A stretch of 63,343 bases of DNA, the filler included, from Stramenopiles sp. TOSAG23-6 (Eukaryota), in the NCBI GenBank assembly GCA_900128565.1. It is 8 parts of 8 records of this genome, joined end to end, with 100 filler letters (N's around TTAATTAATTAA, not from the genome) between each part and the next. Parts side by side here need not be neighbours in the genome. Positions count along the whole stretch, not along the records: positions 1 to 10,025 come from LT636336.1; positions 10,126 to 20,145 come from LT636337.1; positions 20,246 to 30,244 come from LT636338.1; positions 30,345 to 40,309 come from LT636340.1; positions 40,410 to 50,371 come from LT636341.1; positions 50,472 to 60,403 come from LT636342.1; 2 more parts are not named here. One strand, 5' to 3'. Position 1 is the stretch's first letter. Each line of letters starts with the position of its first letter. Of this stretch, positions 1,461 to 62,000 are shown piece by piece. Under the pieces are notes generated by a model that worked only from the letters and a program-made list of their open reading frames with translations, did not search any database and had not been told where the DNA came from. A program made the translations under genes and the position numbers.

Positions 1461-3933
1461 ATGGGAGAACCATCTATGTCAACGAAAGATTTACTGAATT
1501 GCATTGAAGTTGCACGCAAAACGGGAAATTTTACTGACGAGTCGAGTTTTAGTTTGTCATGCAAAAATAGGTTAGCTCTTGTTTACAGCGTTTTATCTCT
1601 ACCTGATATCCCTGGAATTGATATTTCTTCAAATAAAAATACGAATCCTAATTCGTGGGATAATGAGATAACTAATAATCCTGAGCAGGCGTTGGAAAAT
1701 GTTGCTATATTGTTAGTTTCGCTAGAAAAGTTGATTGCTGACAACACATCCATACTTGATGAATTTGCGTTAGATGTTTTGCAATATGTGTTTCAGTATA
1801 TGACTGATGATGATAAAGTATTTGGCCATTTTTCTACACAGCTAAATAAATCTGTACAACAAGCCGCTTCCAATTTTATAGAGACTGTGTGTAGAACGCG
1901 AAATCCTCGCGAAGTTTGGATGCCTATAAAAGTGATTGCAACTTCAAGAATGGTGAACCTTGGTCGTGATTTTCAGCTACTCCGTTCTATCCCTATACTT
2001 TTAGATAGAATTGTTTCAGAACGAAAGGGAAGATCACGTCGTCTACTGTTCTCAGACATTACCAATATATCATGTAAAATAGTAGAAAAGATGATGTTAT
2101 CTCATAGAGACGACTTTCTAATTCATGAGAGTTTACTTACAAAGCATTTTTTGAATGAGGTTGTTGGTAAGCTTCCTCTTGCAAAGTATCTTAAGAGTGG
2201 AGAGCATCATCAGAGTGGAGATCATTATCACACTATTTTCGAATTATGTATTCGTGGAATGTCAACAATTATCGAACCATTTACAGCATATTTATATCGT
2301 ACGAGAATTGCACTTCAATGCGTAGGTGTTTACCGAAAAGACACAACTATAGAAAAAGAATATGAGTTTGCATTAGATTGTTCAGCTCATCGTCTTTTTA
2401 TATTACGTCATGTGAATTCGATAGCAGTTTTGTCCAAGGAAAAGAGTTCACCTGATCTTCCAATACAAAATTTTGTACAACAACTACTACGAGTAGATGG
2501 TTCAGCACTTTATATTTTAGAGTTTATTAGAAAACAGAATATGTGTAATACTACAGTATCTAGTGAAGTATGTTTTTATCATTTATGTTTTTTTCAAATG
2601 TTCAATTTTGATTTTTTTTTTTCTTTGAAAATTCTGTACTTAACGATTTTCAATTTTGACATATTTTAAATAGTACTGGCCTTAAATGGCGCAGCTCTAT
2701 TATCTTGGTGGTTATTAGGACGAAATCCTAGAATTCTTAATCAAAATCAATCATTACTATCATATATACCATCAGTATTATCGCCAAGTATGTACGTTTT
2801 CATCATTCATTTTATTTTTTTTTTGGTACGAAATTTTGTACCTAACAAAAAACTATCAATTTTTTTTTAATATTTTCCGAAAATATATGTTTGTCCGTAT
2901 TGGCATTGAGAATTGTTCACGATTATTAGATACTAGTCAAAGTAAAGTTAACATTGAAAGAGGCCTGGAATTAATGTCAAGGATATTTGAAGCATATTTA
3001 CCACCTCCGATATATATAAAATGTAAACAGGAAAGCTCTCATAATAATGATAATATCGTTTGTGACGCTTATCAACTTTTAATATGTACATTTTCAATTT
3101 CAAAATTTTAATTTTTTTTTCCAACGAAATTTTGTACCTAACGTTTTTTATGTACCAAAAAAAAAATATTTTTTCACAATATATATACCTGTTTCAAAAT
3201 GTTATTAAATATTAGTACAATGAACGAAAAGGAGAAAAATCGTGAAAAATCTTTACATTTAATTCCTTTATTATTATCTATTTTACCACCGTGTTTACGA
3301 TTTAATACTATATTTAGATTGCTAAAGGGAAATTATGCTGCTTTTGATAATTATTCATTTGGTAGAAAACTTGGTACAAAACAAAAAGATTCAGATAATT
3401 ATTGTCTTTCATCAGCAAATACTGCGATAGTTTTCGATATAATTCGTGCACAGGTTGTTGAATCTATTTCTTATATACGAAAATCTGTACCAAAACCAAA
3501 GCAAAATGAAGTATACAACAATTTCTATACTTCTCCTTTTGTAACAGGTAAAGTCTTTTGTTTTGTGAAATGGTTGTTAGAAAAGTTATCTCAGAGAGAA
3601 CTTGTAGAATGGTCTATGGCTTATGCAAGCTGTTTGAATTTACTACGTTTTCTAATTCTTGTAGTTCCAGATGCTCTGAAAAAAATAAATAGTAAGCCTA
3701 ATCGTATGGCGTCTCATAATAATATCGATGATAGTCCAAAGAATAATGTGGTAAATATTTGTGATTTAATTAATCTTATGAGTAATGCTGTTGATGATAA
3801 GACAAATGAACTTTGTAAATTAAGTAATAATATTGATTCTACAGAATATGCGACAACAAGATTGAAAGAATCAAAAAGTCGTATTTTTATTGTGCAGGAA
3901 GTGTTGAGTAGAGTTAGAGAACTTTTAGTATAA
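1461..3933 (+). CDS. Multi-exon helical protein, possibly glomulin/ALF4-like; introns ~2568-2672 (boundary ambiguous), 2792-2888, 3086-3184
   Basis: Four exons join in frame after intron removal; C-terminal AYASCLNLLRFLIL resembles the glomulin/ALF4 C-terminal motif. Confidence 0.55.
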
Positions 3934-4076
3934 AATAATATATTTTTTAAGAATTTTCCAATTTGGATTTGTTTTTCGTACAAAATTTTGTACTAACAAA
4001 AAAGAAAAAAAACAAATTTTGATAGTATAAAATAAGAAATATATACATTTATTCATATTTACATGATTTTAGAAAT

Positions 4077-6628
4077 CTAGGGCAAAGTCTCGATAAAAAG
4101 TTTCATCGTTTCACTTTTCAATATTTCAAGTATTGATAATGGGGAATACATAGTAAAAATATTTCGGAGAACATTACCTGAATTTTCTACACCTCCGCGT
4201 CTCAAAGCTTTTATGAAAGACATTTTCCGCCGGAAACGCATTTTTTTCAATTCATGTATTGTGAAAAGATATTTGTTTTACGAAAAAAAACAAATTAGGT
4301 ACAAAATTTTCTATGAAAAAAAAAATGAAATTCATGATGAAGACTTACATTCACAAAATTATCAACACTTTCTTCTGGTATTGAATCAATCATAGTGAAT
4401 TCTGAAGCTTCTTTATTATTGGACATGGCGACTAAAGCAACAACTTTATCATTGCGTAAATCTTCTGATGCGTATTTAAGAGTCATTCCATTTATATATA
4501 CTGCCTGTAAGAAAAAATCACGATTCTTTTTTAATTGTTCCGAAATGTTCTCAAATAATCCATACCCGAATAATTCATTTCCTAGAGATGGTGGTTTATT
4601 TAATGAGAGTGCATAAATTGTGAAAAAATACTTTTTTTGTTAAAATAAAATTCGTTAGGTATGGAATTGGGTACAAAAAATAAATAAATTTAAAATTCAA
4701 GAATTCAAGAAAACAAAACGCACATCAAGTAAAAATTGACCGTTTGACTTTAAATTCACTGGAATATTTTCGACAATATATTGTTCTTCACCCCACGCAT
4801 TGTTTAAAGCACAAAGTGTTATTTCACTCTGTTCTCTCAATGATTTCGAAGCGTCATTGTATATTGTGTTGTCAGGATGATATAACGCTGCCAAAAATAA
4901 ATCTCTCTCACCCTGTAATCTCTTTGAAGCTACTTTGAAGAATAGATCACCATCATCACCTTGAATCCTAGCCATCATTATATGGTAGTCATCTACATAT
5001 GGCAGACGTTTTACTGTATCCATGCAAAAAGAATCTGGATTCTCTTCCCAAAATTCGATTTCGAAATTTCCAAGTATGGCAGCATCAAAAACAAAACCAT
5101 AATTTTGTTTTAAAGAATCTGAAGCAAAAGCAATATTAAGAGCATTTACTTGTACAGCTAACAAAACAATCTCGGGATCATTAATAAACTTTGGTTCGTC
5201 GAAAAACATAATATCTCCATTTTGAATAGCCACTAAGTAATCATCTCGCATATTTTGCATTTCACTTGAGTACCTTATTTTCGGAAATTGAGGATAGTCA
5301 TTCACCCAATGTTGTTTTCTCTTTGCTACAATATCATTAGCAATTGCCCTGGATTTAATTTTTGCAATATCAACTTTATCAACTCCAGAAATGACACGAG
5401 GAATATCAAGAAGCCTTGGTGATGCCCATTCTAAAGCAGCGATATTTCCCCTTTTAGCAGCCATAACAATATTGAATGTATTTCGTAACCTTAGTGAAGC
5501 ATATTGAAGTGCATTACCATTACTTTTATCAACCGCAGTCATAACAATAAAAGATGTATCTCGTAAATTCACTGAAGCATATTCGAGTGCATTACCATTA
5601 CTTTCCACCGCAGCCTTAACAATATCATTGCTATCTTGTAAACCAAATGAAGCATATTCGAGTGCAACACCCACACTTTTCACCGCAGCCATAACAATAT
5701 CGTCATTATTTTTCAATAAATCTGAAGCATATTGGAGTACAAAGCCATACTTTTGTACAATATTTAATACAAAATTGTAGTTTCCAAAGTTTGTTACTGA
5801 GGTGTGTTGTAGAATGTCCACCAAAGTTTGTCTTTTATTGCTGCCGTCTACAGCTAACTGTGTAACCCAGAGCTCATGTCGAAGCCTTGATGATAAGAAT
5901 TGAAAAGATGCTGGATTCAATAACACAGCTGTAACAGCTATAATTTCATTATCACGCTCTTCTACTGATAAATTTTGAAAATATTCTTTCAAACAGAGAT
6001 AGGATTGCTCAGACACCATTAGAGGAGTTTGTACAGAGAGTAAGGTAGTTATGTGATGATATATTGTATCAATCAACTCAAAATCATAAGTATATTCGGG
6101 TATTATTTCTCCTGAAATTGTATGCCATTCATTTCTTAACTGTTGTATAACAGGATTAAATATATTTGAAGTTTTTAAAATCTCATGCAATTTAAGTTGA
6201 AAAATTCTTTGAGCAAATGAATGAATGAAAGGGATTTGGCGAAGTCTCTCCGAAACGTGCTGTATCATCATCGGGTTTTTATGAAGTACTCTTATTGCAA
6301 CTGCCATGTCGTCTTGAAAGAACGGTGATACTGTAGCGAATTTACTCGGGGTTTCCATGATTACACGTACCACTTTATCCCGGGAGACCAACACATTAGA
6401 GATGTCTGTGCTGGGAGCGGCGGTGGCTGCTACTCCAGCAACGGACGCATTTATCGGACTTGCATGCGCCACCGAGGACTGTAGAGTTGTTGTTGCGTCG
6501 TTTTGCGAGGCGTTGTCTGTTCTTTGTCTTTTTGAGTCGCGCATAACGTCGTCGGACCCCCGTCGTTCCATTCCACTTGCAATGGTTAAAAGAAACGTAA
6601 TGTATAGAAACAATGTATAATATTTCAT
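4077..6628 (-). CDS. Secreted DUF4116-repeat protein; introns 4613-4723 and 4254-4348
   Basis: Signal peptide from MKYYTL; many 'AV..NG.ALEYAS..L' repeats; the repeat pattern continues across the first GT-AT intron and the frame stays open across the second to TAG at 4077. Confidence 0.8.
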
Positions 6629-6879
6629 GCTGTACCTGCTTTTGATGATTCCTTTCAGCTGAAGTGGTGTGGCTGGGGTAGAAGTATCTGTACAACAATT
6701 ATTTCCGAATTTCCTTAGTAAGTATGCGTATGTACGTCGGTAGTATGCGCCAGTTAGCAATAGAGCCAGCGCGCAAAACCGGTAACGATCCCCGATCGAA
6801 ATCTTGACAGAAGTGGCCACATCAAGTTTCAGTGCGCATCTAAAGACTTTCGTATAATTCAGTAACTCAATCAAGTACT

Positions 6880-9132
6880 ATGCGCCTCTTACTCATACTA
6901 AGTGCTATCGCAATTGCAGGAGCAAGTAGTAATGCTGGTGAATCAGTTAATTCAGGTAATCTTGAAGCTAATGGATTCGAAGAAATTCAACATAAGAGCC
7001 TCGGAGATGTGCAACGGGAACGTTTAAAAAGAGCTCAAGGCGGTGGCGACGACACACTGTATTATGTCGACCTTACTGGTGCACCAGATGAACCTCAACC
7101 AAAACGACAGCAAACTGATGCACCTGATGGACCTTCAGCAAAACGACAGCGAACAGGGCTTGCTCCTGCTGAAGTTTACCAAGAACAATACCTTGGTTTA
7201 AGGCGATATGAACGAGAACAAAGGCAGATTACAGACGATCGACGAATTGCTGAACAAATACATAATCAGCAGCTCGCCGCACGACAACAAATGCTCTTAC
7301 AACAGCAACAGCAACAGCATGCAGCTCAAACAGCAGCGCGACAACAGCAACTGCTTCGTCAACAACAACAACAACAACAGCATGCAGCTCAAATGGCGCA
7401 ACAACAACTGCTTCGTCAACAACAACAACAACAACGTCAAATAGCGCAGCAACAACTGCTTCGTCAACAACAACAACAACAAAAACGTGCAGCAGCGCAA
7501 CAACAACTGCTTCGTCAACAACAACAACAACAACAACAACAACGTCAAATAGCGCAACAACAACTGCTTCGTCAACAACAACAACAACAACAACAACGTG
7601 CAGCTCTAGCGCAGCAACAACTGCTTCGTCAACAACAACAACAAGCAGCTCAAGCTTTTCAACAACAACAAGCTGTTCAACAACAACAACAACACGCTCA
7701 AGCTATTCAAAAACAACAAACGCAGCTCATGCAGGATGTGGCCGCGACAGCACAGCCGATTCACGTGAAATGTCCGAAATGCGGACTCATACTTGTAGCT
7801 CCCGAACATGCGCCGGAGTTCAGATGCCCATGCGGCCAAGGCATGCGGCTGCCCGACTCGGTCTTGAAAGCTCAACAACAACAGCTAGAGCAGAGATTAA
7901 CCAAGGCTATTACTGAAAAAAAATTGGACGACCTAAAATCTCTCTGGGCAGATCATGAAAAACGCGGAGAGGATGCCGTTGAATCTTTTGTACTTGCAAG
8001 TGGAACTGTTGTTATCAAACTTTTTGAGGCAGGAAAAGATGTTGATTTTTCTGTTCTTCTATATTTAATGAATGACACCAGATTTCTTGTAGATTTGAAT
8101 GTTGAGGGCAATTTGGGCGTTGACACACAAATTCGGATCATCAGTAATTTAATGGGCAAAAAAGGTGGTCCTCAACTGATTTTTTCTTATTTGAGTTATA
8201 ATCCAAGAGATTTTTTGGCTTTTCTCGAACTTCTTGATCATGGGAATTCTTATTCTGTACCGGCATTTGTGGAGGAAGCAACAGCGGCAGGACTGAACCT
8301 TCTTCGACATACACTTACTTGTGGAGGTGGTCCTAAAGGTCGTGCCTACGGTTCGGCTGGCATAAAAATAAGGATAATGAAACGACTCATTGCAACAAAG
8401 AAAATTACTGAATTAAACAAAACATATAATGATGGCAGGACTCCATTAATTCTTGCCAGTGATCGAATGACATATGCAAAGATTCTAATTGATGCTGGTG
8501 CAAGAGGTGATACTCCACTAAAAGGTGGCGAGACATATTTCAGTTTGTTTGCGAGACGTCACATAAAAAAATACTTTTCTCCCAGGAGCCGCCATGAAGG
8601 AAATTTTGATGCAATTGCTGAACAGTTAATGATAAAAGGTGCAGTTTCACAAAGTGAAATGAACAGAGCATTGTTTATTGCTTTTAAACAAAAGGATTGG
8701 AGGAAGGTGAGGATGATGATATTACAACGAGGAGAGGGAACTAGCCAAGCCGACCCAAATTTCGAGACACCGGAAATACTACACAAATTAATGATGGAAG
8801 AGACAGTGGACGAATCGCATACAAGAGAATTCTTCCAAGGTCTTCTATTGCAGTTTAAAGCTGCAGAAGCAAAGTTCAATTATCGAATTCCTACCGAACG
8901 TTCAACAGAGTCGAATTTATCAGCATTGGGTCATTATCTTAATCGTTGGAAACATGAATTTGAACAAGGCCAGTATGACGAACGAGTGAAGCATCTAAAA
9001 TTCATGCATGTTGAGCTTGAAGTGCGGCCTACTGATAAGGAACAATATATTGTGAAAAGTTTGCTCCAGGGAATGAAAATCACTGACATCATGACCAAGA
9101 ATAATGAATTTTGGCCACATTTTGGACAATAA
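6880..9132 (+). CDS. Secreted polyQ protein with zinc ribbon (CPKC...CPC) and ankyrin-like segment
   Basis: 750-aa ORF with signal peptide, AQQQLLRQn repeats and a GRTPLILA ankyrin-like motif. Confidence 0.75.
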   Translation: MRLLLILSAIAIAGASSNAGESVNSGNLEANGFEEIQHKSLGDVQRERLKRAQGGGDDTLYYVDLTGAPDEPQPKRQQTDAPDGPSAKRQRTGLAPAEVYQEQYLGLRRYEREQRQITDDRRIAEQIHNQQLAARQQMLLQQQQQQHAAQTAARQQQLLRQQQQQQQHAAQMAQQQLLRQQQQQQRQIAQQQLLRQQQQQQKRAAAQQQLLRQQQQQQQQQRQIAQQQLLRQQQQQQQQRAALAQQQLLRQQQQQAAQAFQQQQAVQQQQQHAQAIQKQQTQLMQDVAATAQPIHVKCPKCGLILVAPEHAPEFRCPCGQGMRLPDSVLKAQQQQLEQRLTKAITEKKLDDLKSLWADHEKRGEDAVESFVLASGTVVIKLFEAGKDVDFSVLLYLMNDTRFLVDLNVEGNLGVDTQIRIISNLMGKKGGPQLIFSYLSYNPRDFLAFLELLDHGNSYSVPAFVEEATAAGLNLLRHTLTCGGGPKGRAYGSAGIKIRIMKRLIATKKITELNKTYNDGRTPLILASDRMTYAKILIDAGARGDTPLKGGETYFSLFARRHIKKYFSPRSRHEGNFDAIAEQLMIKGAVSQSEMNRALFIAFKQKDWRKVRMMILQRGEGTSQADPNFETPEILHKLMMEETVDESHTREFFQGLLLQFKAAEAKFNYRIPTERSTESNLSALGHYLNRWKHEFEQGQYDERVKHLKFMHVELEVRPTDKEQYIVKSLLQGMKITDIMTKNNEFWPHFGQ
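7270..7720 (+). repeat. Coding minisatellite (gcgcaacaacaactgcttcgt + (caa)n)
   Basis: About six visible tandem units encoding AQQQLLRQQQQQ. Confidence 0.9.
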
Positions 9133-9323: not shown

Positions 9324-9958
9324 TCATGCTTGTTGACTAAAATAAGAATCTTTAGATTTCCCAGACCTACCTCCTGAAGTTTTTGAACTTGTTTTGTTTG
9401 ATGTATCACTTTGTCCAACTTCTTGCGCATCAGACTTATTTGCATGTTTCTTTTTCCCGTGTTTGTTCTCAGTTTTTTCATTTTTTTTCGTATTTTTTTC
9501 TTCTCCATTTGACAAATTTAAATTATTGATTCCATTGGGCATACACCAACCAAGCATAGCAATGGTATGTAATAATATATGAAGCGCTGTAATAGTAGCA
9601 CCCCAAATAAGAACACTTGCTGCAGTATACTTTTCTTTCTGAGAATCTACACTTTGTCCATTATCTGATTCTATGATCCAAGTACCTATATTGTGAAAAA
9701 ATATTTTTTCATTTTTTTGTTAGGTACAAAATTTCGTACGAAAAATAAATTTGAAATTGAAAAAAAGTTGAACATTAACATACCAAATTCTCTGCTGGAT
9801 AAAGCAAAAGCACAATATATACTGTAACCAAAAAAGAAAAAATCTACAAAAAAAAGAAGGATCCATGTTGTACGATTTGCAAATTTTTCTGGATGATAGA
9901 AATGCAAATAAGTAAAAAATATTAAGTAGACTTGTACAAGAACTGAACAAATCAGTGT
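9324..9958 (-). CDS. 3' part of a multi-pass membrane protein; GT-AG intron 9686-9783
   Basis: Two exons join in frame (REF-G-TWII); hydrophobic segments; 5' end lost at contig edge. Confidence 0.6.
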
Positions 9959-10025
9959 ATGCATTGTGAAAAAATATTTTTTAAAATTTTTTTGTAATTT
10001 GTTTTGTTAGGTACAAAATTTCGTA

Positions 10026-10125
10026 NNNNNNNNNNNNNNNNNNNNNNNNNNNNNNNNNNNNNNNNNNNNTTAATTAATTAANNNNNNNNNNNNNNNNNNN
10101 NNNNNNNNNNNNNNNNNNNNNNNNN
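10026..10125. other. Artificial contig linker N-TTAATTAATTAA-N (also near 20190, 30289, 40354, 50416, 60448, 61918)
   Basis: Identical 12-mer with stops in all six frames, flanked by N runs. Confidence 0.97.
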
Positions 10126-10175
10126 CGAAATTTTGTACCTAACAAATTTCGAATTTAATTTTTTTTACAATACAT

Positions 10176-10274
10176 GTTGATGCCAACCAAATAGCGCAAG
10201 TTGTGAAAGGAGGTTATATGTTAAAAGATCGTGTTCTCCGGCCTGCACAAGTTGGGGTTTCAAAATCAGAATAA
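10176..10274 (+). CDS. grpE: Last exon of GrpE nucleotide exchange factor
   Basis: VDANQIAQVVKGGYMLKDRVLRPAQVGVSK matches the GrpE C-terminal signature; preceded by an intron end ...ACAATACAT. Confidence 0.85.
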   Translation, partial: VDANQIAQVVKGGYMLKDRVLRPAQVGVSKSE

Positions 10275-13205: not shown

Positions 13206-14921
13206 TCATTTAAATTCCTTATTTTTTTTCTTTTTCATTTGTTTTTCTTTTCTATCTTTTCGTTTTTGTTCAGCAACTTTAATTCTTTTTTTAGCACGTC
13301 TACTTAGAGACGTTTTACGTTTCGTTGTAGACATTTCCTTATTTATTACATCATTTTTCATACCTATATTATCTTTCATTTTTCCTTTTTTCTTTCGTAA
13401 ATCTGCTTCAATTTTTAATTTATTTCGTCTCGAGCCGACACGTTTTAACAATACATCAAAAATAAGGTCACTATTTGGTGGAATATCAGGTGGATGTCCA
13501 GCACAACCATAACCACGTAATGATGGAATAAAAATTCTTCTTGTCTCTCTCTCATAAATAGATTGCATACCTTCAAACATTGACATTCCAGAGACGACAC
13601 CACCTTGACCAGCTCTATAGGTTAAAATTCCTTTTGAGAAAATTTTTCCAGTATCAGCTAACATTCCTTTGTATTTAATTGTAACAATTTCATCTTGTTT
13701 TATTACTTTTGCATCTATACCATCCATATCATCAATATCAGTATTAGTAGTCATATATTTTACTCCTGATCGAAGTGAAATTAATTTATTTACAATATTT
13801 TTTTTTTTTACTATTTTTTGGGTAGTTGATGACGGTGATGAAACGCATATTTCTNCGTTTTTTGTTTTTTTTGTTTTTTTTGTTTTTTTTGTTTTTTTTT
13901 TATCAATACTATCATCATTAATACTATTATCATTAATACTATTATCATTAATACTATCATCATTAATACTATCATCATCAATACTATCATCATCAATACT
14001 ATCATCATCAATACTATCATCATCAATACCTTCAGGTCCATACAATTTGACCAATTTATTCAACAAAATTTCTTCTTTTCCTTTTGTTTTTTCCATCAAA
14101 TTAAATATGAAATTTCCGTCTTCAGTGTTTATCTTTTCAGGATTGTACTTTAAATACATATTAAATACCCGAATACCAAAATCAGATAAATTATCAAAAG
14201 GTGTTTCTTCACCAACATCAACAACATTTGGTGTTGTACATTTTGGTATCTTCACAGTTAAAATATTCTCATCATCATCATCTTGATTAGGTGAAAAATC
14301 TTTTGGTAGAGTGACAGATATACATTTACCATTAGGTAAGTCAACGGACACTTCTTCACCCGGACAAACATCTTTTGGGACTTTGATTTCAATAAAATCA
14401 AAGTCATCATCAACGTGAGATACAACTTTGTTGTTTTTGACGTAACTTTCTTTTTGGTTTTTGCTTTTCAACTGATTTCTTACATCATCTCCCAAAGATT
14501 GTTGAATATTACTCCACATACCGCTTATTTGAATAGATATATCAGAGTTATTGAAAACACTCTTATTTTCACCTCCAATAGCTATGACCTTAAAAGTTAC
14601 AGATCCATCACAAGAAAAGAATGAAACGTCTAAATTGACATATGTTTGACCCAATGTACTCAGTGTTGCCACCGTAATTGAGTCAGTTATCGAACTTACA
14701 TTTTTTGACAACATATCAGACTTATTGTGCATATTGTGTTCCATTCTTTCTGTCATAATTTTCAACTGATAGGCAGTCTGATAGGCAGTGGTTGCTGACT
14801 CATCTGGAGGAATTTGACCTACAGAGAGTGAAGCTTTGTGTAAAGACAACGCTGTTCCAGGCTTTATGGAAACAACGCAGGAAGAATGTAGAGGAACACG
14901 AAAAAATGCTGAAGATGACAT
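13206..14921 (-). CDS. FKBP-type PPIase with nucleoplasmin-like N-terminus, acidic and basic tracts
   Basis: IKYKGML...IPSLRGYG...PPDIPPNSDLIFDV FKBP motif; DDDSI repeats; K-rich tail. Confidence 0.8.
   Translation of the reverse strand: MSSSAFFRVPLHSSCVVSIKPGTALSLHKASLSVGQIPPDESATTAYQTAYQLKIMTERMEHNMHNKSDMLSKNVSSITDSITVATLSTLGQTYVNLDVSFFSCDGSVTFKVIAIGGENKSVFNNSDISIQISGMWSNIQQSLGDDVRNQLKSKNQKESYVKNNKVVSHVDDDFDFIEIKVPKDVCPGEEVSVDLPNGKCISVTLPKDFSPNQDDDDENILTVKIPKCTTPNVVDVGEETPFDNLSDFGIRVFNMYLKYNPEKINTEDGNFIFNLMEKTKGKEEILLNKLVKLYGPEGIDDDSIDDDSIDDDSIDDDSINDDSINDNSINDNSINDDSIDKKKTKKTKKTKKTKNXEICVSSPSSTTQKIVKKKNIVNKLISLRSGVKYMTTNTDIDDMDGIDAKVIKQDEIVTIKYKGMLADTGKIFSKGILTYRAGQGGVVSGMSMFEGMQSIYERETRRIFIPSLRGYGCAGHPPDIPPNSDLIFDVLLKRVGSRRNKLKIEADLRKKKGKMKDNIGMKNDVINKEMSTTKRKTSLSRRAKKRIKVAEQKRKDRKEKQMKKKKNKEFK
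13906..14028 (-). repeat. 15-bp coding tandem repeat (DDDSI/NDNSI x8)
   Basis: atactatcatcatca units visible directly. Confidence 0.9.
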
Positions 14922-15098
14922 TTTAAAGAAATGCTGTCAATAGAAAACAATATTACACCTATACACGTACTAACTCTGCAGACTAATTATTAACACTGAA
15001 ATGTAAGATGGTACTACTAGCTATAGTAGGCTACTACTTTCTGTAGTTTTTGTTTTTTGTTGCGTTACGCTGAAACAAAGAATTGGCCTAGCTACACA

Positions 15099-15376
15099 GC
15101 ACGGCCCTAACCCTAATTTTGGACGGTTCGGACCGCGGCTTTAAAGTGCTGTAATTCCTAAAGTTCGTGCAGTTTTGACTACTACCGCATATGGGAATGA
15201 TCAATGCCAGGCAATGAAGACATGTATCTATATGGCATGTTAAAACTGCACGGCTTACATGGTCAAATAATGCATTGTAGCCGCGCCTGAAATAGGGGGG
15301 GTTTTCGTACGAAATTTTGTACCTAACGATTTTTTTTTTTTTTCCAACCGTCCACTTTTTGGCGTTTTGGCCGTGC
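15099..15376. mobile_element. Putative MITE-like or fold-back element carrying the intron motif
   Basis: Three nested inverted-repeat pairs; internal exact copy of the intron branch motif; no clear TSD. Confidence 0.4.
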
Positions 15377-15494
15377 ATGCAGTGCTAGGGTTAGGGTTAT
15401 ACGAAGGAACTCAAAATTTTTTGCATCGGCGGCGAAGCCAGCCAGACAGAGAGCACTTGTAGTAGCAGCTGGTATATTTAAATCTGATTAGTAA

Positions 15495-19970: not shown

Positions 19971-20294
19971 TTTACTTACAGGTACGTAAATCGTGAATCG
20001 AAATTTTCAATTTTTTGATGATTTCTTTCAAGAATAATTAATGGTCATAAAACTCATGGCTTACCTAGGCCTAGGGTTAGGGTTTGCGTTCGAAAAAAAA
20101 CCATTAATAATAATACAAATATTTTTTTTGTTTTCAAATTTTTGTNNNNNNNNNNNNNNNNNNNNNNNNNNNNNNNNNNNNNNNNNNNNTTAATTAATTA
20201 ANNNNNNNNNNNNNNNNNNNNNNNNNNNNNNNNNNNNNNNNNNNNACCTAACAAATTTTAGTTTTTTTTTTTTAAATACTTTTTCACAATACAT

Positions 20295-40947: not shown

Positions 40948-40984
40948 CGGATTAACCACTAACAAAGCCAACCTGTGAAAGTAT

Positions 40985-46348: not shown

Positions 46349-47488
46349 TTATTCACGCTTTCTAATCTGCATTTTGACACCACCAGCACCAAGACCACTT
46401 AAACCCATCATCGCACGAAAATTTGACATTGTCTTGGCTTCTTTTTCTTGAGCAGCCCTTGCTCGTTTCAATTTACTTTTATTTTGATTCTCTTTTTTTC
46501 TATCAATTCTTTTCTTCATCCTTTGAAATTGAGATCCTTCATTTGTGCCACCACCACCCATCGATACATTTTCAGATACAGACATTCCATCACGAAGAAA
46601 TTCTTTTTCTCTAGCACTACCATGTATTGTAAAAAAATATTTTTTTTTGTAAAATTTGTTAGGTACGAAATTTCGTACGAAAAAAAAATCGAAATTGAAA
46701 AAAAATTGAAAAAAAAAACATACATGAATTCTGTTTCCTTGTGATTGACGTTTTGCCATTTTCGAAGCATGACTTCCAGGGTCTGCTCTCGCGTTGTGAA
46801 TAATTTCCGATCGATGTCTTTTCTTTTTATCCTTTATATTTTTTCGGTTTTCTTGTTTTTCTTTATAGGAGATATTTTTACGCTGTGTAATATTTAAAGT
46901 ACCTGAATTTCTTCCCTCATTATTCGTGAATGTGTCGACCGCATCTTTTGTAGACTGAAGTTGAGCTCGATCTTTATCACCTAAAGTTTTGACAAAATTC
47001 CATTTATGTTTTGTTCTTTTAGTTGTTTCGAGGATTGCTTGGGAGATACCATCATAATACATAGTATCTAAGTCATCAGAATTCCATTTTGAACAAAATT
47101 TGGAGAATAAATGACGCGCATCATCAGTTAAAAGATCATCGAGATATTTCCTTTTCTCAAGATGCAACCACACGCGAAACTCTTTTGCATGTGTAAAGTA
47201 GTCTTCTCCACTTAAAACCCTTCGGCCACCGACGTCAATTCCGCGAGCTTGTAACAAAAGTTTGGCTTTCTTCAATTTACTATCGTGACTACTGCTAGAA
47301 CGGTGCTTCTTTGCTTTTTTGATGCGTTTTTTCTCTCTACGTTCAGTACTATCAGATTGGCTACTATTGTCATCAGTATCACTACGTTTGCTTTTGCGAT
47401 GTCGCTTTTTACTCTTTTTATGAGACTTCTTTTCCTTACTACTCTTTTTTTCCTTTTTTGCTTTTTTCTCTTTCTTGTTACGACTCAT
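46349..47488 (-). CDS. SCI1 (style cell-cycle inhibitor 1)-like nuclear protein; intron 46622-46723
   Basis: EDYF...EFRVWL.LEK..Y...L...AR.LFSKF..KWN...YY.GI motif; K-rich N-terminus. Confidence 0.7.
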   Translation of the reverse strand: MSRNKKEKKAKKEKKSSKEKKSHKKSKKRHRKSKRSDTDDNSSQSDSTERREKKRIKKAKKHRSSSSHDSKLKKAKLLLQARGIDVGGRRVLSGEDYFTHAKEFRVWLHLEKRKYLDDLLTDDARHLFSKFCSKWNSDDLDTMYYDGISQAILETTKRTKHKWNFVKTLGDKDRAQLQSTKDAVDTFTNNEGRNSGTLNITQRKNISYKEKQENRKNIKDKKKRHRSEIIHNARADPGSHASKMAKRQSQGNRIHVCFFFQFFFNFDFFFVRNFVPNKFYKKKYFFTIHGSAREKEFLRDGMSVSENVSMGGGGTNEGSQFQRMKKRIDRKKENQNKSKLKRARAAQEKEAKTMSNFRAMMGLSGLGAGGVKMQIRKRE

Positions 47489-48255: not shown

Positions 48256-48639
48256 ATTATTTTAGGAGTGGTAACACACTTTGTTGCGGGACTGCGTACG
48301 TAAAAATACGAGGAAGGAGCTACCGCAGCTACTAATAAGAAAGCAATAGGGGTTAGATTGGAGATTGATGGAATTTTTGTCGTCAAATATGACAAAAATA
48401 TTTCATTCTTTTCCATTTTGACCTTCGTTATGGGACTGCGTAATGGATTACGAGGAAGGAATTGCCATAACAACAAGCCTTGTTTTTTTGGGTGACCAAA
48501 TAAAGGGTGGATTGAGCTTCATTGATTATGTATTATACTTTTTTTATTTTTATTTCTATTTTGTTGTACGTACTTGCCGCCTCTCTTTGAGTATTCGACA
48601 TGAATTTCAAATGTATTGTTTTTGTACGAAATTTCGTAC

Positions 48640-49554
48640 CTAAGGAAATTTCGAATGTACATCCAAACGTTGAATATCGTTTTCTCTGGCTTGAAGGATA
48701 TTTTGTCGAGTCTTCATTCCTGATTGTGTCAGTGTAATGAGATGTAATAATCCAGGTATTTTGTCTTGTTTTGCCTGACATTCTTTCGTCTTTAGGGTTA
48801 GGGTGTTGAATTTTTTCATTCTGTTTTTTGTTTTTTTCCAAAGATCATTTGCCGTCTGTATNGTTTCCTGTTTAGCTGCTTGTATTATCTTTTTTTTCTC
48901 TTTATGATGAATAAAAAGTCCATTATTAGATTTCTTCTTTGCTAAGTCTGACAATTCTGCTGCTTTCTTTTCTTCTATAACTGATTGACGGAACTCATAT
49001 ATTGTGAAAAAAAAAAGTTTGGTTAAAAAAAATCGTTAGGTACAAAATTACGTAGAAAAAGAAAAACATTCATGATGAAGACATACGTCTTGAATAAACT
49101 GAAGTTGTTGTTTGCAAGATTTTATAGCCATTTTTGTCATTTGTAGTTTTTTTCTATGCGACAAAAGCTCTTTGTTGTATTGTTTGTAAACAAACTGAGC
49201 ATTATTAAAATCTTCTTGATAATGATTTCGTCGTACTATAAATTTTGAAGCTTCTCCTTTACCGTGAACACTTTCCTCCTCCTCCTTATCTTTGCAATTA
49301 CTGTTATCATCACACTTTCTATAATTCCAGCATTTGCAGTCCATTTCATTCAAAGGACCAATATCCCCTCCATATACACATTGAGAATTTTTCCCTGGAG
49401 AAGAACACCAACCACAAAATTCTGTACTTGTACACTTTGAACAATTATCGGTCTGTGGACAGAGAGAATTTGATCTCAAGAATACCTTTTCAGATTTCTG
49501 AAGGCTTATTTGAATAACTGTAATAATAATTAAAAAATATACTCTAGAGCTCAT
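48640..49554 (-). CDS. Secreted PSI-domain plus coiled-coil protein; intron 48997-49086
   Basis: Signal peptide; CSKC...CGWC PSI motif; in-frame join to ORF 48640-48954. Confidence 0.7.
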
Positions 49555-50605: not shown

Positions 50606-51851
50606 ATGATTTCCTTTACACGCCGTTAAATACATTGGTAAACTATTTCTACACTGAAGTTTTTCAGAGGATTGAACATTTGCATTAGGGTTAGGGTTAT
50701 TATGTTCAGATTCAGATAAAGTTTTGTCTAATTTTGTTGCGTTTTCATTTTCAACTTGGACAGTACTAGGGTTGGGGTTAACCGCTTGGTTCCATAGTGC
50801 AATTCTATGTCGTTTTTGTTCCAATTCTTTTTTTTTTTTTTTTTCTTCTTCATTTTTTATTAAATTTAGACGTTTTTTTGCATCTTCTTCCGCTTTTTTT
50901 TTTTCTTTTCGTGTCATTGGACGACCAGACCCTAACCCTAGGTTCGTTGAATGCTTTTTTTTGTTATTATTTGTTCTATGTTTCAGTTGTTGTTGTTGTT
51001 GATTCTGTCCAAATTGACTTAATTCATGTATTTTGGAAAAATATTTCAAAAAAATCTTAAAAAAATTTGTTAGGTACGAAATTTCGTACGAAAAAAAAAT
51101 TTTGTAAAAAAAAATAAAACATACATTATCACTCAATTGAAATAATGACTGTTTAAATGTAGTATCATTTTCAATACAATGTTGGATTTTTTGCATTTGC
51201 TGTATAAGATGTTTGACAACTTTTCGAGTCGCAATTTTTGACAATGATGATTCAAAATTCTTTTTTCCCTTGGAATATTCAATATGAATTTTGGAAAAAT
51301 ATTTCAAAAAAAAAATCTAAAAAAATATGTTAGGTACAAAATTTCGTACGAAAACCNAAAAAAAAAAANCGATTTTTTTNTAAAAAAAAAAATATTTCAA
51401 AAAAAAAATCTAAAAAAATATCTTATGTACAAGTTTTCGTATGAAAACCAAAAAAAAAAATAAAACATACATAAATATCTTGAAGAGTTTCGACGTCTAC
51501 ACATTTACAAATAATTTGCATTTGATATATATCAATTGTAAGAAGCTCACGAGAATTCTTCGGTATACAATTTTGTAACCCTGCAATTTCAGCAGGAGTT
51601 GCTTTTGTATTTAGTGCTTTTTCCCAAAAACGTTCAACATAGACTTTAAACAGTGACATTCGTCTTTTTTTTTGTTCCATTAATTTTTGCTTTTCAGATC
51701 TTTGAGTTGTTGTAGACTTTTTTGAGTGTTTTGAGTGTTTCGAATGTTTCGAATGTTTAGACTGTTTCGATTTTTTAGTTGTCGTTGGCTCTTGTGAATG
51801 ATCTTTGCTCGCTTTCTTATCAAATTTATCGTTTCTTTGCATAAAAGACAT
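50606..51851 (-). CDS. Hypothetical protein, 5' part; introns 51284-51470, 51026-51124, next intron from 50605
   Basis: Exons join in frame at phase-0 GT-AT introns. Confidence 0.6.
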
Positions 51852-52412: not shown

Positions 52413-54332
52413 ATGAAGCACTTATTTACAGGAGTATTCTTTTATTCAAGTATACTGTTTACTTTGAGTACTGTGTATGCAGTTGATAAACAGCAGATTA
52501 CTTGTAGCGCAACTCAACCATGCCCCGAACATCAACGTTGCTACCGTCCAGGATCGACTCAGTCGCTTTGTATTGAAAACAATATGCTAGGTGCATCTGC
52601 TCCACCCACTCTTGGTGCTTCAGTACAGGATGAAACAGTTAAGAAAATATTATCATCCATTTTAGGTGATTTTTTTGATGGTTCAAAGGGTCTGTCTGCA
52701 GAGCAAAAGGAATTACTCTTTTCACAATTTGAAAAGTTGTCAACAAAACAAAGAGAGCAATTCGCCTCTTTTGCTGAAAAATTAGGCGAAGGAAGTGGTA
52801 ATAGGAACCCAGGTGATCCTGTCACATCTGAAGAAAAAGAGAAGTTCACTAAAGCTGGATTTATTGCGCTACAAAATGCATGTATGTTTTCATCTCAATG
52901 TTTTGTCTACATTTTTTTATTTTTTTTGGTTTTTTGGTTTTCATACGAAATTTTGTACCTAACAATTTTTTTTTTTTTTTTTTTTTTTAAAATTTTTTTC
53001 AAAATGTTTTTATACTCCATTCATGAACCATCTTGGACTATCGGAAAAAGATAAAGAGAAACTTTCTTTCATCAATTCTGATCAAATGTCTGCAATTTTA
53101 AACAATCTTCGAGATGCTTTGAACAATGATGGTCAACAATTCGATCCCAAAGATTTGCACGACAAAACGAAACTTACTGCAAAACAACTCAACGGCCTTG
53201 TCAATGTTTTTGGATCATTGAGGGCTGATTGTTCATCTAACGAAGCAAAACAATGCCAAGACGAATTTATGTATTTTTTTTTTTTTTTTTGAATTTATTT
53301 TTTCGTACGAAATTTTGTACCTAACAATTTTTTTTTTTTTTTTTAAAATTATTTTTCCAAAAAACATGAATGGAAAGACTCAGTGTATTTGGACAAAATT
53401 TCAAAAACGAATGAAAAAATGCGTCAAATATGGGAAATGTATCTTTGAAGAATGTCAAAATATCACACAATGTGACTCACCTGATGCTCTGGAGTGTACG
53501 AAAAAATTCGAAAACGAATCTTGTCCAATTTCAAATGTAGTTTTTTTTTTTAATTTTTTTTTTTAAATTTTTTTTCATAGGAAATTTTGTACCTAACAAA
53601 AAAAATTAAAAATTTTTTTTTTGAAATATTTTTCCAAAATATATTTTGATTCTTTTCTTCATCATAATAAGAAATGTATTGTGTATGGCTCATGTCTATT
53701 CGCACGTTGTATCGATATTTCAAGCATTGGTGATGATGATGATACAAAAAGTGATAATAAAAGTTATTGGGAAAAAGAAGAACAACAATCAAATGGGAAA
53801 TCTTTGGGTGTGTTTTCAACAATTCTTGTGGTGATTTCTGTACTGTTTGTGATGGGTATGTTTTACGTTTTTTAAAAAAAAAATTTTTAATTTTTTTTAC
53901 ATTTTTTTTTACATTTTTTTAAAATTTTTTTTTAAAATTTTTTTTTGAATTTTTAAAAAAATTGTAAATATTTTTCAATGATTCCAATGATTTCAATCAT
54001 TGGTGTACCAGATCCAAAGATAAAACTAATACTCTATAGTATATACACATACTACATTCACTCTGTTACTTTTGTATTGAAATTTCGTACCTAACAAAAA
54101 CATCAGTTTACTTTTGTATTGAAATTTCGTACCTAACAAAAACATCAGTTTAAAAATAAAAATAAAAATATTCTTATACAAGAACAGGTGTAATTGGATA
54201 TTTAGGATTTCGTGTTTGTGTGAAGAAAAATAATGTTTCAAATGACAACTCTGTAATGTCAAATGGATCGAGATCGGACAATCGACGAACGTTTCGTACT
54301 TTTTTCTTAATGAATTTTTCACTTTTTTTTTC

Positions 54333-54384
<52 letters not shown>

Positions 54385-56694: not shown

Positions 56695-57841
56695 TATAAT
56701 ACGCCCTGTTTGTCGTAGAATAAACAAGTTATATTCACAGTTATGTGTAGCTCGTTTGCGTTGTTGCTGAAGCTGGATCAATAGACCACAAGAAAAACGG
56801 TTTAAAAGTTTTTGAATGTAACAGAGAAAAAACGTATCCTAATTTTTGAATCACACACACAAAAACGTATCCTACTTTTCAAAAATTTTGTTTTTTTTTA
56901 ACCGACCAAAAGTATAAAATCTTATATTTCGTGTTTTTTTCAAAACATGAAAACAAACAACAAGAAAAAAAAAAAAAAAGAAAATTGAAAACTGCTTTAA
57001 AACTCTGGATAAATTTATTATTTTATCAATCAAATCTTTTGCAAAGTGAAAATGAAATAAATTCAAAATTATGAATAATAAAAGAAATAAATAGAATAAA
57101 TCAAACTAAATATCAAAGTGACATCGAAATTTCTTACGTATAAAATTTCGTATGATTTTTTTTTTTCGATACACTATATATGATACACCATCTTTACACG
57201 AAATCTCAACAAAAGTTTATTCAATCATATGCATAAACGAACTTGCATGCATTGCTTCAATGACCTTATTATATTGACAAAATTGGTTCATGGTATCACT
57301 TAGACAATATCTAGATACATTTCATACAATTTGTGTTGAGTCATAATACGTATATCAGAGTTTTTTGTTACATTGTAAGATTTCGTACCATTTTTTCGTA
57401 CCTAATTTCATGTAATTTTTCTAGATTTCGTGTTGAGAAGACAAATAATGATTGTTGATTGTTGATTGTTTGATGTCACTCTCCCGTATATAGTATATAC
57501 TATACAACAACTTTTATTTCATGACTGACACTGTACAATTTCAAAGTAACCTTCAAATATTGATTCATATAGATCCATATTGAGTTCTAAGAGTATTTAA
57601 AAAAAAAAATGAAAAAAAAAGTACAAAAAAATGGTACGGAATCCAAAAATAACACTGATTATTTTTCATTTATCGTCTTTTTATTGTTTACGATTTTTTA
57701 CAACTCTTTTTCACTCTTTTTTTTTCTCTTTTTCACTCTTTTCCCCTTCAAATGATGAATATTTTTTATCCTACAATTTTTCTAGCACATTTTTCACTCT
57801 TTTTCACTCTTTTTCCCTTCAAATGACAAATATTTTTTATC

Positions 57842-60381
57842 CTACAATTTTTCTAGCAAATTACAATGTTTCAACTTCGAAGCTAAAAAGGAAGCAGTAA
57901 CACCGTTATTATTCTTAATATTTGATTCAGCGCCAGCTTCAAGTAATAAATGAATTGTTTCTATTCCTTCCTTATAATTACTTTTATACCATTTTTCTTT
58001 ACCTAAAGCCAAATGATTACTTTTATACCATTTTTCTGTACCTAAAGCCAAATGTAGCGCAGAATTACCTGCAGAATCTGTTGCATCAATCAAATCTCGG
58101 GATTTCATGTTTTGTGAAAAGGTTTTTTTTTTTTCAATTTAAANNNNNNNNNNNNNNNNNNNNNNNNNNNNNNNNNNNNNNNNNNNNNNNNNNNNNNNNN
58201 NNNNNNAAAAAAAGAAATACAAATCTAAAATACAAAATTTCATACAAAATTTCATAGTTAAGAACAAAAAAATATAATACTGGAGACGTACTTGTCCTTT
58301 AGAATGACTTTCAAAGCATCGGTATGATGCAACGATGCAGAAATCATCATTGGGGACCTTTTTTTATTATTACCAATTGTAAGATCTGCACCTGCAAGGG
58401 TAGGAAAATATTTCAAAAAATGTTTTTTTTTTATATTAGGTACAAAATTTACTATAAAAAAAAACATAAAGACACAAATGATGAAAACGTACCTGCATCA
58501 AGTAGTAATTTGATGATCANNNNNNNNNNNNNNNNNNNNNNNNNNNNNNNNNNNNNNNNNNNNNNNNNNNNNNNNNNNNNNNNNNNNNNNNNNNNTGGTT
58601 TGAGTTTTTTTTATGTCAAATTGTTTTTTTTTTCATAGTACATTTTGTACCTAATATGAAAAAAACAAGAAAAACAAGAAAATTAAAACAATATAAATAT
58701 GTACACAAAACGTTTTACAACGTAAAAATTAAATGATGAAAAATATATAATAAAATGAATGATGAAACTAACCTGTTTGTCTCTTGAATTGAGATGTATT
58801 CCATGACGTATGAGTATGTTTAAACATTTTGTACGGTTTAGTTGAGCAGCAATCATAGCTGCGGAAGTTGCTGTCCAATTTATATGGTTNNNNNNNNNNN
58901 NNNNNNNNNNNNNNNNNNNNNNNNNNNNNNNNNNNNNNNNNNNNNNNNNNNNNNNNNNNNNNNNNNNNNNNNNNNNNNNTTCATTTTGATGGTCATTTTG
59001 ATGTTCATTTCCCATTTCTATTTTGTTTTTGATATTTTTAGAGGTATCTGTTGCTAACGTTTTGTTCAAAAATCGTTTGCACAACATTTGAGTAATTCTA
59101 GGGAAATTATTTTGTACTGATATATATAATGGGGAACAACCGTGTATTTTTTCACTCGCGATATCTATGGATGCGCCTCTAGATAAAAGCAATTGGACGC
59201 ATTGCTCATGTCCATTTGTGCACGCTTTATACAGTGGCGTTTCATTGAACTTATCACAAATATCAATATTTATATTTGGTTCTGGTATGAAATTTTGTAT
59301 GAAAAAAAAAAAAAAAGTTGAAATGAAAAATGATACCTTACGGCATTATCGTACTCGCTCCTTTAGCGGCAAGAACATGAAGTGATGTCATTTGTGTAGA
59401 ATCTTCTCTTGCATTCACATCGACTTTATAATTAAGTAAAAGCTGAACGACACGATAATAATCTGGTTTTGTATTTGTTGTAGATTTTGATGTTTTCATA
59501 GAGAGAGCTGTTGTTGAAGTAATGGCGATTGGATTTATGTTTTTTTCAATTTGACTTTGATCACTCAAGTGATAATTATTCTTTGAATCATTGTGTATAG
59601 AGTCGACTAATGTATCGCTGCAGTATCCTTCACATGCGGCATATAGTGGAGTTTGACCATTGTATGACGTTATATCTGCCTTGGCGCGTGTCTTTAACAT
59701 TCGTGTAACGTGTAACAGGCGTTGAATTTCAGGATTAGCTTGTAGTTCATATTTTGGGTGTTTCAAACACCAGCCATTTTCAAATAAATCTCTCTCAACG
59801 TCATTCTTCACAGTTTTAGCTTCCTGATCCGTCAGTTGCGCCAGTGAACTATTCAAATTTTTCAAAATCAATTCAACACCGATATAACACCCGGAAGCTG
59901 AAGCTAGCCACAGTGGTGTTTGACCACTTGCATTTCTACTCTCTACATTGACGTATACTCCTAACAAAGAGCGAATAATATGTGCATTTCCTTTATATGC
60001 AGCAGCATGCAAACAAGACCAACCCACATTATTCAATCTATGTGGATCAGCACCTTCTCCAATGAGAAACTGTACAGCTTCGTCAGCATTATTACGACAA
60101 GCAATATATAAAGCTGTGCTACCATCTTTTGGTCTATAATCATCTATATCTACGTTTCTGTACAGTAACTCCTGAAGTATATCAACACAATTCGCACCCG
60201 CTGCATCCATCAATGGTGTATTCCCCAACTTATCACATACTTGATATGAAGCACCAGCATTTAATAAAAGACAGAAAGCGGTATAATTAGCTGTAGAGCA
60301 TGAGTCCAATAAAGCACTCCGGAAAAATGATGGTTCGGTATAATTGATAAAATGTCTTTTCATTTCTTCTCTACGACTCAT
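57842..60381 (-). CDS. Multi-exon ankyrin-repeat protein (gapped); introns include 58392-58492 (GT-AG) and 58107-58291 (GT-AT, spans a gap)
   Basis: Many GxTPL/ALH ankyrin motifs over several ORFs; junction near 59270-59340 unresolved. Confidence 0.8.
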
Positions 60382-61973: not shown

Positions 61974-62000
61974 AAAAAAAAATAGGAAAAACCAATTGTG

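Follow-up and report, generated by a model that had tools for sequence, protein, structure and literature searches.

Gene content of the window

The DNA analysed here is a stretch of 63,343 nucleotides (nt) from Stramenopiles sp. TOSAG23-6, hereafter the window, in which about eight contigs of ~10 kb are joined by N44-TTAATTAATTAA-N44 linkers and interrupted by further runs of N. It houses an abundant family of short introns in which the last two letters of the intron copy the last two letters of the upstream exon, most often AT in both places. GC content across the window ranges from 27 to 42%, and AT accounts for 9.6% of its dinucleotides. Part of the window is matched by small DNA runs of one organism and by seawater metagenomes, and a small part by seawater metatranscriptomes, so the source is a marine eukaryote. 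Two of the contigs are palindromic: 30345-40309 carries identical inverted arms of ~4.5 kb around a centre of ~970 nt, and 61974-63343 is a palindrome over its whole length. Both end in the palindromic core of the intron family or in poly-T, and they look like hairpin chimeras from whole-genome amplification or assembly. A naive scan counts the genes and introns within them twice; copies duplicated in this way were counted once.

Genes recognised by Pfam include those for DUF4116-repeat, FKBP, Rab GDI, SET-domain, EF-hand, ML-domain, Acyl_transf_3 / NRF-6-like and Ndc80-like proteins, together with Sel1 repeat, ankyrin repeat and 2OG-Fe(II) oxygenase proteins. A gene at 41494-46223 (+), without a Pfam match, encodes ~1,396 residues in three repeat units of ~430 residues that share 33-39% identity; its exon 42221-42484, used as a query in a protein collection, returned no candidate for a spliced relative at 48-154 amino acids. 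The conserved GDI and FKBP genes (18333-20006 (-) and 13209-14936 (-)) are single long open frames without family introns, and most family introns are housed in poorly conserved genes. An Atlas look-up with the GDI protein returned generic eukaryotic GDI clusters only.

An abundant intron family with a palindromic core

A motif search, followed by nhmmer with a profile built from 12 clear copies (E<1e-3), returned 40 matches to one intron family in the window; as contigs 30345-40309 and 61974-63343 are palindromic, two pairs among these matches are the same DNA. A full copy is ~90-110 nt long, typically ~95 nt. It opens with GTATGTTTT, continues through T-rich linkers to the core TTCGTACGAAATTTTGTACCTAAC, in which the GTAC..GTAC part forms a 16-nt palindrome that is nearly perfect and the final letters are a branch-site-like CCTAAC lying 33-57 nt before the intron 3' end, and passes through more T-rich sequence to a 3' block that reads CCAAAATACAT or CACAATATAT. 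The introns are conserved at positions +1 to +9 and over their last 16 letters. Copies with the block CCAAAATACAT form a young subfamily with 86-92% identity to the consensus, including linkers that have no obvious role as signals, and copies with CACAATATAT an older one with 63-77% identity; both subfamilies keep three blocks, namely the 5' site as far as +9, the core including the branch site, and the 3' block, and the rest differs by ~30%.

Family copies occupy non-homologous positions in unrelated genes, among them the DUF4116 gene, the acyltransferase, the Ndc80-like gene and the triple-repeat gene at 41494-46223. Every genic copy is sense-oriented, and the one antisense profile match inside an open reading frame (61604-61640) is a weak core-like hit. 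The family is very abundant both in its source and in an independent seawater metagenome: summed depth in the likely source DNA run reaches 10^4-10^5 over family stretches, compared with 3-6 on unique DNA, and is likewise high in the independent metagenome. A 19-nt core pattern occurred at four loci in metagenome contigs, of which only one, on the unrelated contig L003, is a true family copy, and that copy reads AT/AT (last two letters of the exon/last two letters of the intron). The same pattern gave one chance match in genome contigs and none in viral contigs.

Contigs break inside the near-palindromic core (..CGAAATTTTGTAC beside the N linker) at the joints 10026-10125, 20146-20245, 30245-30344 and 40310-40409, as expected of a very high-copy repeat able to form a hairpin. 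At the first of these joints both contigs break in the palindromic core, and two 3' parts of family introns, both ending in AT, flank it (9942-10186). The 5' part of a further intron, after an exon ending in AT, is cut by the contig end at 40251-40309 (+); the same DNA recurs in the Ndc80-like gene at 30345-30403 (-). Three introns (43580-43733, 51284-51470 and 27307-27464) contain internal tandem duplications of the core or look like tandem units. Tandem duplications of the core, comprising the branch-like site and its flank, were also seen in non-coding DNA at 54070-54140 (+), and the core seems prone to local duplication.

Intron ends repeat the end of the upstream exon

One rule placed the boundaries: an intron begins with the G of GT and closes 4 nt beyond the conserved ..AAT in its 3' block. 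The final set comprised 22 introns, with 21217 and 59336 left out as weak and the older definitions at 27404 and 27202 replaced by 27464-27307 and 27202-27052. Exon and intron ends read AT/AT in 17 of the 22, with one each of GT/GT (27948), AG/AG (58492), TG/AG (9783), TT/AT (42126) and AC/AT (49086). Both letters matched in 19/22 introns compared with 14.8 expected when intron ends were shuffled among introns (p 0.0005), and in 17/20 compared with 14.45 expected (p 0.009) without the ambiguous 52882 and the canonical-looking 58492. An exon ending in AT preceded 17/19 AT-ending introns and 0/3 of the others (Fisher p 0.0065), and 17 AT exon ends among 22 against the 9.6% background has a probability of about 8e-14. 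The first-pass annotation of this DNA had reported that the intron end copies the exon end and that an AT|N exon junction stands in place of AG|G; both statements are confirmed, its counts were essentially right, and the pattern is genuine and lies far outside chance. At exon positions -3 to -8 the information content is <0.4 bit each, which indicates a junction repeat of 2 nt; of the 24 first-pass introns, 8 matched at position -3 and 11 at position -4, counts that stand without a shuffled expectation.

The conserved termini of the removed sequences are GT and AT, as had been proposed: the register that starts at GT gives the most uniform ends (GT in 21/22, AT in 19/22), with GTAxGT at the start of most introns. 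In AT/AT copies all three possible cut registers give an identical sequence, which bears out the earlier statement that the cut there is ambiguous by 1-2 nt. An AT-AC register, cut 2 nt upstream at both ends, yields the same mRNA from AT/AT copies and is less likely; its last two intron letters vary (AC, AT, GC, TT, TC, CC) and its first two are non-GT in the mismatch cases. Whether a copy ends in AT, GT or AG, the distance from the ..AAT of the block to the intron end is 4 nt. The two ends of the intron had also been described as complementary, and at consensus level this holds, with 162/198 cells pairable in the proposed register compared with 51-123 when the 3' partner is slid by 1-3.

Intron-less paralogous sites carry AT at the exact position in 6/8 cases, indicating that AT was in the coding sequence before the intron. 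At phase-0 junctions the last exon letter is T in 10/11 introns; NAT makes up 76% of NAY codons (P 0.23), and the exon T is therefore no more conserved than codon usage predicts, so that the exon AT looks like a target rather than a maintained signal.

Among AT/AT introns placed by their reading frames, two of the older subfamily lie at 2792-2888 (+; 97 nt, frames join) and 3086-3184 (+; 99 nt). The first can, on inspection by eye rather than computation, also be read in frame with the donor and the end each shifted 4 nt upstream, the end again being AT; the second joins open frames of 122 and 248 codons in phase 1 and has no in-frame GT/GC..AG within 30 nt. The DUF4116-repeat gene holds introns at 4254-4348 (-; 95 nt), which has no canonical alternative, and 4613-4723 (-; 111 nt), which joins open frames of 718 and 105 codons in phase 0. 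A young copy at 21505-21595 (-; 91 nt, 90% identity to the consensus) joins frames of 336 and 57 codons. Those at 46622-46723 (-; 102 nt) and 51026-51124 (-; 99 nt) are stop-free on read-through; others lie at 51284-51470 (-; 187 nt, with its internal duplication and three single N), 53271-53367 (+; 97 nt) and 53537-53644 (+; 108 nt).

Frames were also compared for the introns that depart from this pattern. The TG/AG intron at 9686-9783 (-; 98 nt) has the family 3' block with its last T changed to G, and the AG/AG intron at 58392-58492 (-) is a diverged copy with a canonical pyrimidine tract and a CAG end. The older-subfamily intron at 48997-49086 (-; 90 nt), previously listed as an AC/AT exception, may alternatively be an ordinary GT-AG intron with the acceptor 3 nt further on. 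That at 52882-53020 (+) follows an exon ending in AT, but its assignment as AT-ending is less secure than first thought: AT is one of several in-frame ends, and by eye the family-equivalent end is out of frame. A junction at 58291 that had been taken as complete drops out, as the intron runs into an N gap and its end is not visible. A GTATGT donor at 2568 paired with an AG acceptor did not keep the frame; the frame is kept by a GT donor 4 nt further on, after an exon AT, used with the same AG, or by non-AG ends.

Comparison with paralogues and homologues

The longest upstream and downstream open frames were in the same phase for 19/24 first-pass introns, with two ties and three misses (chance 1/3 each), and two of the three misses were later redefined by homology. 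When spliced at family boundaries, the gene at 41494-46223 yields a product of 1,396 residues that no internal stop interrupts. Five introns are spread over four positions in it, each filled in one or two of the three units, and all five junctions align gap-free to intron-less internal paralogues at 33-39% identity. Four of them are AT/AT: 42486-42586 (+; 101 nt, phase 1), gap-free against two intron-less paralogous units and with its junction residue conserved; 42763-42859 (+; 97 nt) and 44295-44387 (+; 93 nt), at the same position in successive repeat units, where the intron-less third unit reads ..AT|CC; and 43580-43733 (+; 154 nt), with its internal core tandem duplication. The fifth, at 42126-42219 (+; 94 nt, TT/AT), is likewise gap-free against two intron-less paralogous units; these have L and I at the junction residue, so the exact register is not fixed there. 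This intron has an AT start instead of GT, opening with ATATGTTTT in place of GTATGTTTT, and a loose end in an RNA run at 42523 is another family copy with an A-start; were R at +1 to recur, it would be reminiscent of the 5' sites of U12-type introns.

The acyltransferase gene (28646-26163 (-)) has three introns, and its spliced products were scored with a hidden Markov model (HMM) from six full-length homologues at 24-34% identity, one of them a transcript. In a blind scan each donor and acceptor was moved by up to 24 nt and all in-frame, stop-free products were scored with dinucleotides ignored. The proposed boundaries of intron 1 (27850-27948 (-); 99 nt, GT/GT, young subfamily, 89% identity to the consensus) ranked 1/461, which upholds the earlier observation that the GT-ending intron follows an exon ending in GT. 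Intron 1 is stop-free and in frame when unspliced, and all six homologues lack the 33 read-through residues. Intron 2 (27307-27464 (-); 158 nt, AT/AT) ranked 1/374 with a gap-free junction alignment. For intron 3 the first guess scored 510.4 bits (rank 108/374) and the best class 522.9 bits, moving the boundaries to 27202-27052 (-; 151 nt, AT/AT); this class includes at|GTACGT..TTACAT|gg, again of the form AT|GT...AT|. Intron 2 looks like two head-to-tail units (~60 nt and 98 nt), each GT...AT, which the homologue alignment removes as one piece; the terminal AT of the first unit seems to have been the landing site of the second.

On these comparisons with paralogues and homologues, which presuppose no end dinucleotide, the length removed is exact, and AG is not the rule for the 3' end. 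The first AG past the branch-like core was out of frame in 12/19 introns and in frame in 7/19, compared with ~6 expected. Canonical GT/GC..AG alternatives occur by chance within 30 nt in 15/19 introns; at the eight junctions checked, such ends add or delete residues relative to paralogues or homologues and were rejected.

Origin of the junction repeat

We interpret the family as an introner, an intron-making mobile element. It would duplicate 2 nt on landing at AT, bring its own 5' and branch sites and be cut at a constant distance beyond its 3' block, a reading to which we assign a probability of about 0.5. A short non-autonomous element would thereby have become the main intron type of the genome, bringing with it the 5' splice site GTATGTTTT, the 16-nt near-palindrome, the adjoining CCTAAC, T-rich tracts and the 3' block. 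It would land at an AT dinucleotide that pre-exists in the coding sequence, leaving AT on both sides of the element. RNA removal would then run from the first G of the element to 2 nt past its last base, excising the element and one copy of the dinucleotide and restoring the reading frame exactly. With the 3' cut at a fixed distance from the 3' block, the last two letters could be whatever the site supplied (AT mostly, GT once, AG or G in a few), and both the exact removal and the apparent copying of the exon end by the intron end would follow. Three parts of this reading are inferred: duplication of the dinucleotide as opposed to a simple preference for it, removal by a spliceosome, and a cut measured from the 3' block.

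A high-copy, sense-oriented family that is present or absent among old paralogous units, and whose members are far more alike than the sequences that host them, points to an introner. Units of the triple-repeat gene that are 33-39% identical carry introns that are 88-90% alike, and the two introns at the same paralogous position (42763 and 44295) are not each other's nearest relatives. Occurrence in multiple copies at unrelated sites, an apparently exact restoration of frame and protein and signs of recent gain were all found, the last of these among internal paralogous units of one gene. Matching ends other than AT, above all the homology-validated GT/GT, are most simply accounted for by a 2-nt duplication. 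The first-pass annotation had suggested a transposon with a 2-nt target-site duplication (TSD) and short terminal inverted repeats (TIRs). High copy number, presence and absence among paralogues, a single AT at most empty sites and the matching non-AT ends all favour the transposon, which is the best-supported reading, short of proof. The short TIRs are present in part, as an AT-rich inverted repeat of ~9 nt with a bulge, and in the older subfamily nothing of them is left beyond GTA/TAT, which also weighs against an introner with duplication.

Several further points weigh in the same direction. Most of the match consists of AT in every copy, where duplication and AT-specific insertion are inseparable: the ends match at 19/22 loci, 17 of them AT/AT, and the informative cases are only GT/GT, AG/AG and G/G. 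The locus-specific signal thus comes from three introns, and for two of these, with AG ends following G or AG, the ordinary AG|GT consensus would serve as an explanation too. Three junctions mismatch in one letter (TG/AG, TT/AT, AC/AT). Within the window there is no autonomous partner element, and none of the 30 open frames sent to Pfam contained a transposase or transposon domain. Sense-only genic copies fit selection after DNA insertion and spread at the RNA level equally well. Two metatranscriptome runs were compared with 40410-45675; none of their RNA contigs spanned an intron, and the listed joints connect repeat copies with one another. We know of no transposon superfamily with a 2-nt AT duplication. 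The ratio of family to unique-exon depth in the RNA runs was several-fold below that of the metagenome DNA run; such depths are not comparable, and nothing was drawn from them.

A mobile intron family might instead spread without target duplication, either because the element owns one AT or because its ends, TG...CA, slip between A and T; a DNA enzyme could aim it at AT, or it could be reverse-spliced into AT|N sites in transcripts, reverse-transcribed and recombined into the genome. Such an account, which we consider unlikely, is consistent with three registers that are the same sequence in AT/AT copies, with the sense-only genic copies that spread at the RNA level predicts and with a window that shows no long TIR and no transposase; Gozashti et al. 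2022 (PMC9860276), in the portion of that paper drawn on here, treat such cases as inseparable from a TSD. It would nonetheless require two independent changes at exactly the two matching places to produce GT/GT, although the sample is small, and core-only copies in non-coding DNA are unexpected from reverse splicing into transcripts. It is more doubtful still that AT at both places is a selected splicing signal, such as a changed pairing of a small nuclear RNA (snRNA) with the last two exon and last two intron letters, and that the family is in part a convergent constraint on all introns of the organism. In fission yeast, U1 is reported to contact the 3' AG, a parallel for such pairing, and both the conservation of the three blocks in the two subfamilies and the retention of AT/AT by old copies would fit. 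Against this, AT is present at intron-less paralogous sites where no splicing occurs, the last exon T at phase-0 junctions is within codon-usage expectation, linker sequences are common to the copies, family introns ending in AG exist, and a fixed snRNA would not produce GT/GT.

Removal guided by a stem, in the style of euglenid nonconventional introns, would pair the exon end and GTAT.. with ..ATAC and the intron end and make a 2-nt staggered cut through both stem strands, with a non-spliceosomal or modified machine as the cutter. The excess of pairable cells over slid registers speaks for it, as does a stem in the minimum-energy fold of 4/8 copies, and GT/GT could be pairable through two G-U pairs. 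However, fold z-scores were -0.58, -2.87, -1.22, +1.59, -0.18, -1.07, +0.15 and +0.43, so that only one copy in eight (44295-44387, z -2.87) beats its shuffles; all four letters (A, G, T, C) occur at intron position -4, opposite a partner (+2) that is always T; only ~5 A-U or G-U pairs form in the older subfamily; and AG/AG and TG/AG ends are unable to pair. The Euglena signature of CAG at +4..+6 and CTG at -8..-6, as given in the part of its description consulted (PMC12501133), is absent, and the strong GTATGT and branch-like CTAAC point to a spliceosome. We therefore think this mechanism improbable, and a stem or exon-matching rule, the other option raised by the first-pass annotation, is a weak candidate. 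Least probable of all is that the copies are not working introns, being insertions in dead genes or artefacts of single-cell amplification or assembly. Palindromic contigs, N runs, breaks in the repeat and three introns that are stop-free multiples of 3 would be in keeping with that; in-phase long frames on both sides of 19/24 introns, gap-free alignment to paralogues and six homologues, the same family at high depth in an independent metagenome and the AT/AT copy on L003 make it very hard to sustain.

Other candidates were set aside. A TA duplication inside the ends, combined with a longer palindromic target, is ruled out by empty paralogous sites that lack such a target, and a foldback of the whole element by two halves that, read by eye, are both T-rich on the sense strand and hence not complementary. 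A Tc1/mariner-type miniature inverted-repeat transposable element (MITE) would be flanked by TA, and the flank here is AT. Helitrons insert between A and T without duplication and have 5'-TC and 3'-CTRR ends with a hairpin near the 3' end. Insertion at A|T is formally possible for our family in the -1 register, but its ends would be TG...CA, and its palindrome is central rather than 3'-terminal.

Returning to the introner with duplication, we propose tentatively, and with more doubt than confidence, that GT...AT is the dominant intron class and that its 3' cut is measured from an internal block by a U12-like system with changed signals, or by another factor, so that any duplicated 2 nt could end an intron. 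If that were true, an element with a 2-bp stagger could seed tens of thousands of exactly removed, frame-neutral introns wherever a coding AT occurs.

Comparison with known introns

Introners, transposon-derived spliceosomal introns found in algae, dinoflagellates and other hosts, were reportedly described by Huff et al. in 2016. The comparisons below are confined to the portions of the cited papers drawn on here. The general idea of a transposon-derived intron whose junction repeat is a target duplication supplying a splice site is already published, with TSDs of 3-9 bp and GY-AG ends in the examples given (PMC9860276, PMC12130899), and Gozashti et al. 2022 (PMC9860276) note that duplication and site preference are inseparable when the shared dinucleotide is AG. 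Like those introners, the family described here is multi-copy at unrelated positions, would take one splice site from the element and the other from or near the proposed duplication, restores the coding sequence and resides in a marine protist, a common host; unlike them, its repeat is 2 nt (AT) and its 3' end is AT rather than AG. No introner with a 2-nt AT repeat was found in the introner literature consulted, and the supplementary tables of the surveys may list one. What sets the family apart from these published cases is that a textbook GTATGT / CTAAC intron combines a 2-nt AT repeat with a 3' end that is uniformly AT.

The closest match in detail, as far as the portions consulted go, is Physarum polycephalum's burst of U12-type introns (Larue, Elias and Roy, bioRxiv 10.1101/2020.10.12.336362), which have an RTATCTTT 5' motif, short inverted ends and a TA repeat, and of which the non-canonical members include GT-AT (17%) and AT-AT (8%). 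Both systems comprise new introns in large numbers, whose 5' motif is conserved as far as about +9, and both have a 2-nt direct repeat beside short inverted ends and tolerate non-AG ends; one copy here starts with AT. The Physarum introns differ in having a TA repeat, mostly AG or AC ends and a distance of 10-12 nt between branch motif and 3' end; in our family that distance is 33-57 nt for the branch-like CCTAAC, and the +5/+6 letters depart from the U12 consensus. GTATGTTTT agrees with the U12 5' site consensus RTATCCTT at 7/9 positions, which falls short of a U12 motif, with A at +1 in one copy. In place of a U12 branch motif (TCCTTAAC-like, ~10-15 nt before the 3' end), the last 16 nt show only a loose similarity, and Rfam found no snRNAs within the window.

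Amoebophrya introner elements (PMC7789003) have direct repeats of 3-5 nt over exon/intron boundaries, inverted repeats of 8-20 nt and no dominant end dinucleotide. They share with our family non-canonical repeated introns, a direct repeat at the boundaries, inverted ends, a marine protist host and enrichment in poorly conserved genes, and differ from it in that ours has a dominant GT...AT, a 2-nt repeat, a weak inverted repeat of ~9 nt and an evident branch-like site. Among euglenids and some diplonemids, nonconventional introns show direct repeats at the junctions, pairing ends and a proposed MITE origin, and 'intermediate' introns keep a 5' GT with a non-AG 3' end (PMC12501133, PMC4770533, PMC12621601, PMC6221363). 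As in our family, short junction repeats blur the cut, the ends are pairable and GT can be combined with a non-AG end, as in the 'intermediate' introns. Unlike ours, with its textbook GTATGT, uniform borders and weak stem, the nonconventional introns lack a U1-complementary 5' end and have variable borders and CAG/CTG pairing at a fixed spacing. Our introns start with GT in 21/22 cases, their consensus at +4..+6 and -8..-6 is TGT and AAA, and 7/8 folds were no better than shuffles. In the tunicate Fritillaria (PMC13326754), as here, the spliceosome would handle non-GT/AG introns genome-wide; that system is an animal with other end dinucleotides, and the opening of the abstract does not mention a repeated family or a junction repeat.

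How new introns originate, and how fresh insertions come to be spliced exactly, is a long-standing question, and known introners land where a GT or AG can be recruited. The recruited end here is AT. If complementary DNA (cDNA) confirms the junctions, this would be a case of removal at AT ends on a large scale in a wild marine protist, with the element, and not an AG, deciding where the 3' cut falls. As a small (~95 nt), uniform and abundant system, the family would be handy for studying how a 3' site is measured, whether insertion with a 2-bp stagger gives rise to introns and whether an snRNA or U2AF has changed accordingly. Annotation is affected as well: most introns of this genome would escape a gene finder that insists on AG.

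Other features of the window

Core-only copies in non-coding DNA were matched by the profile at 15301-15340 (+), 30162-30197, 48616-48651 and 54079-54139. The first of these adjoins two TTAGGG units within 15301-15400, telomere-like units that lie inside a contig, and an inverted CCCTAA / TTAGGG pair occurs downstream of a gene on contig L003 (~2260-2330, minus strand). The most GC-rich part of the window (42%) includes a 762-residue open frame at 6844-9132 without a Pfam match; several long frames overlap there on both strands, and the region could be a compositional island or a low-complexity gene.

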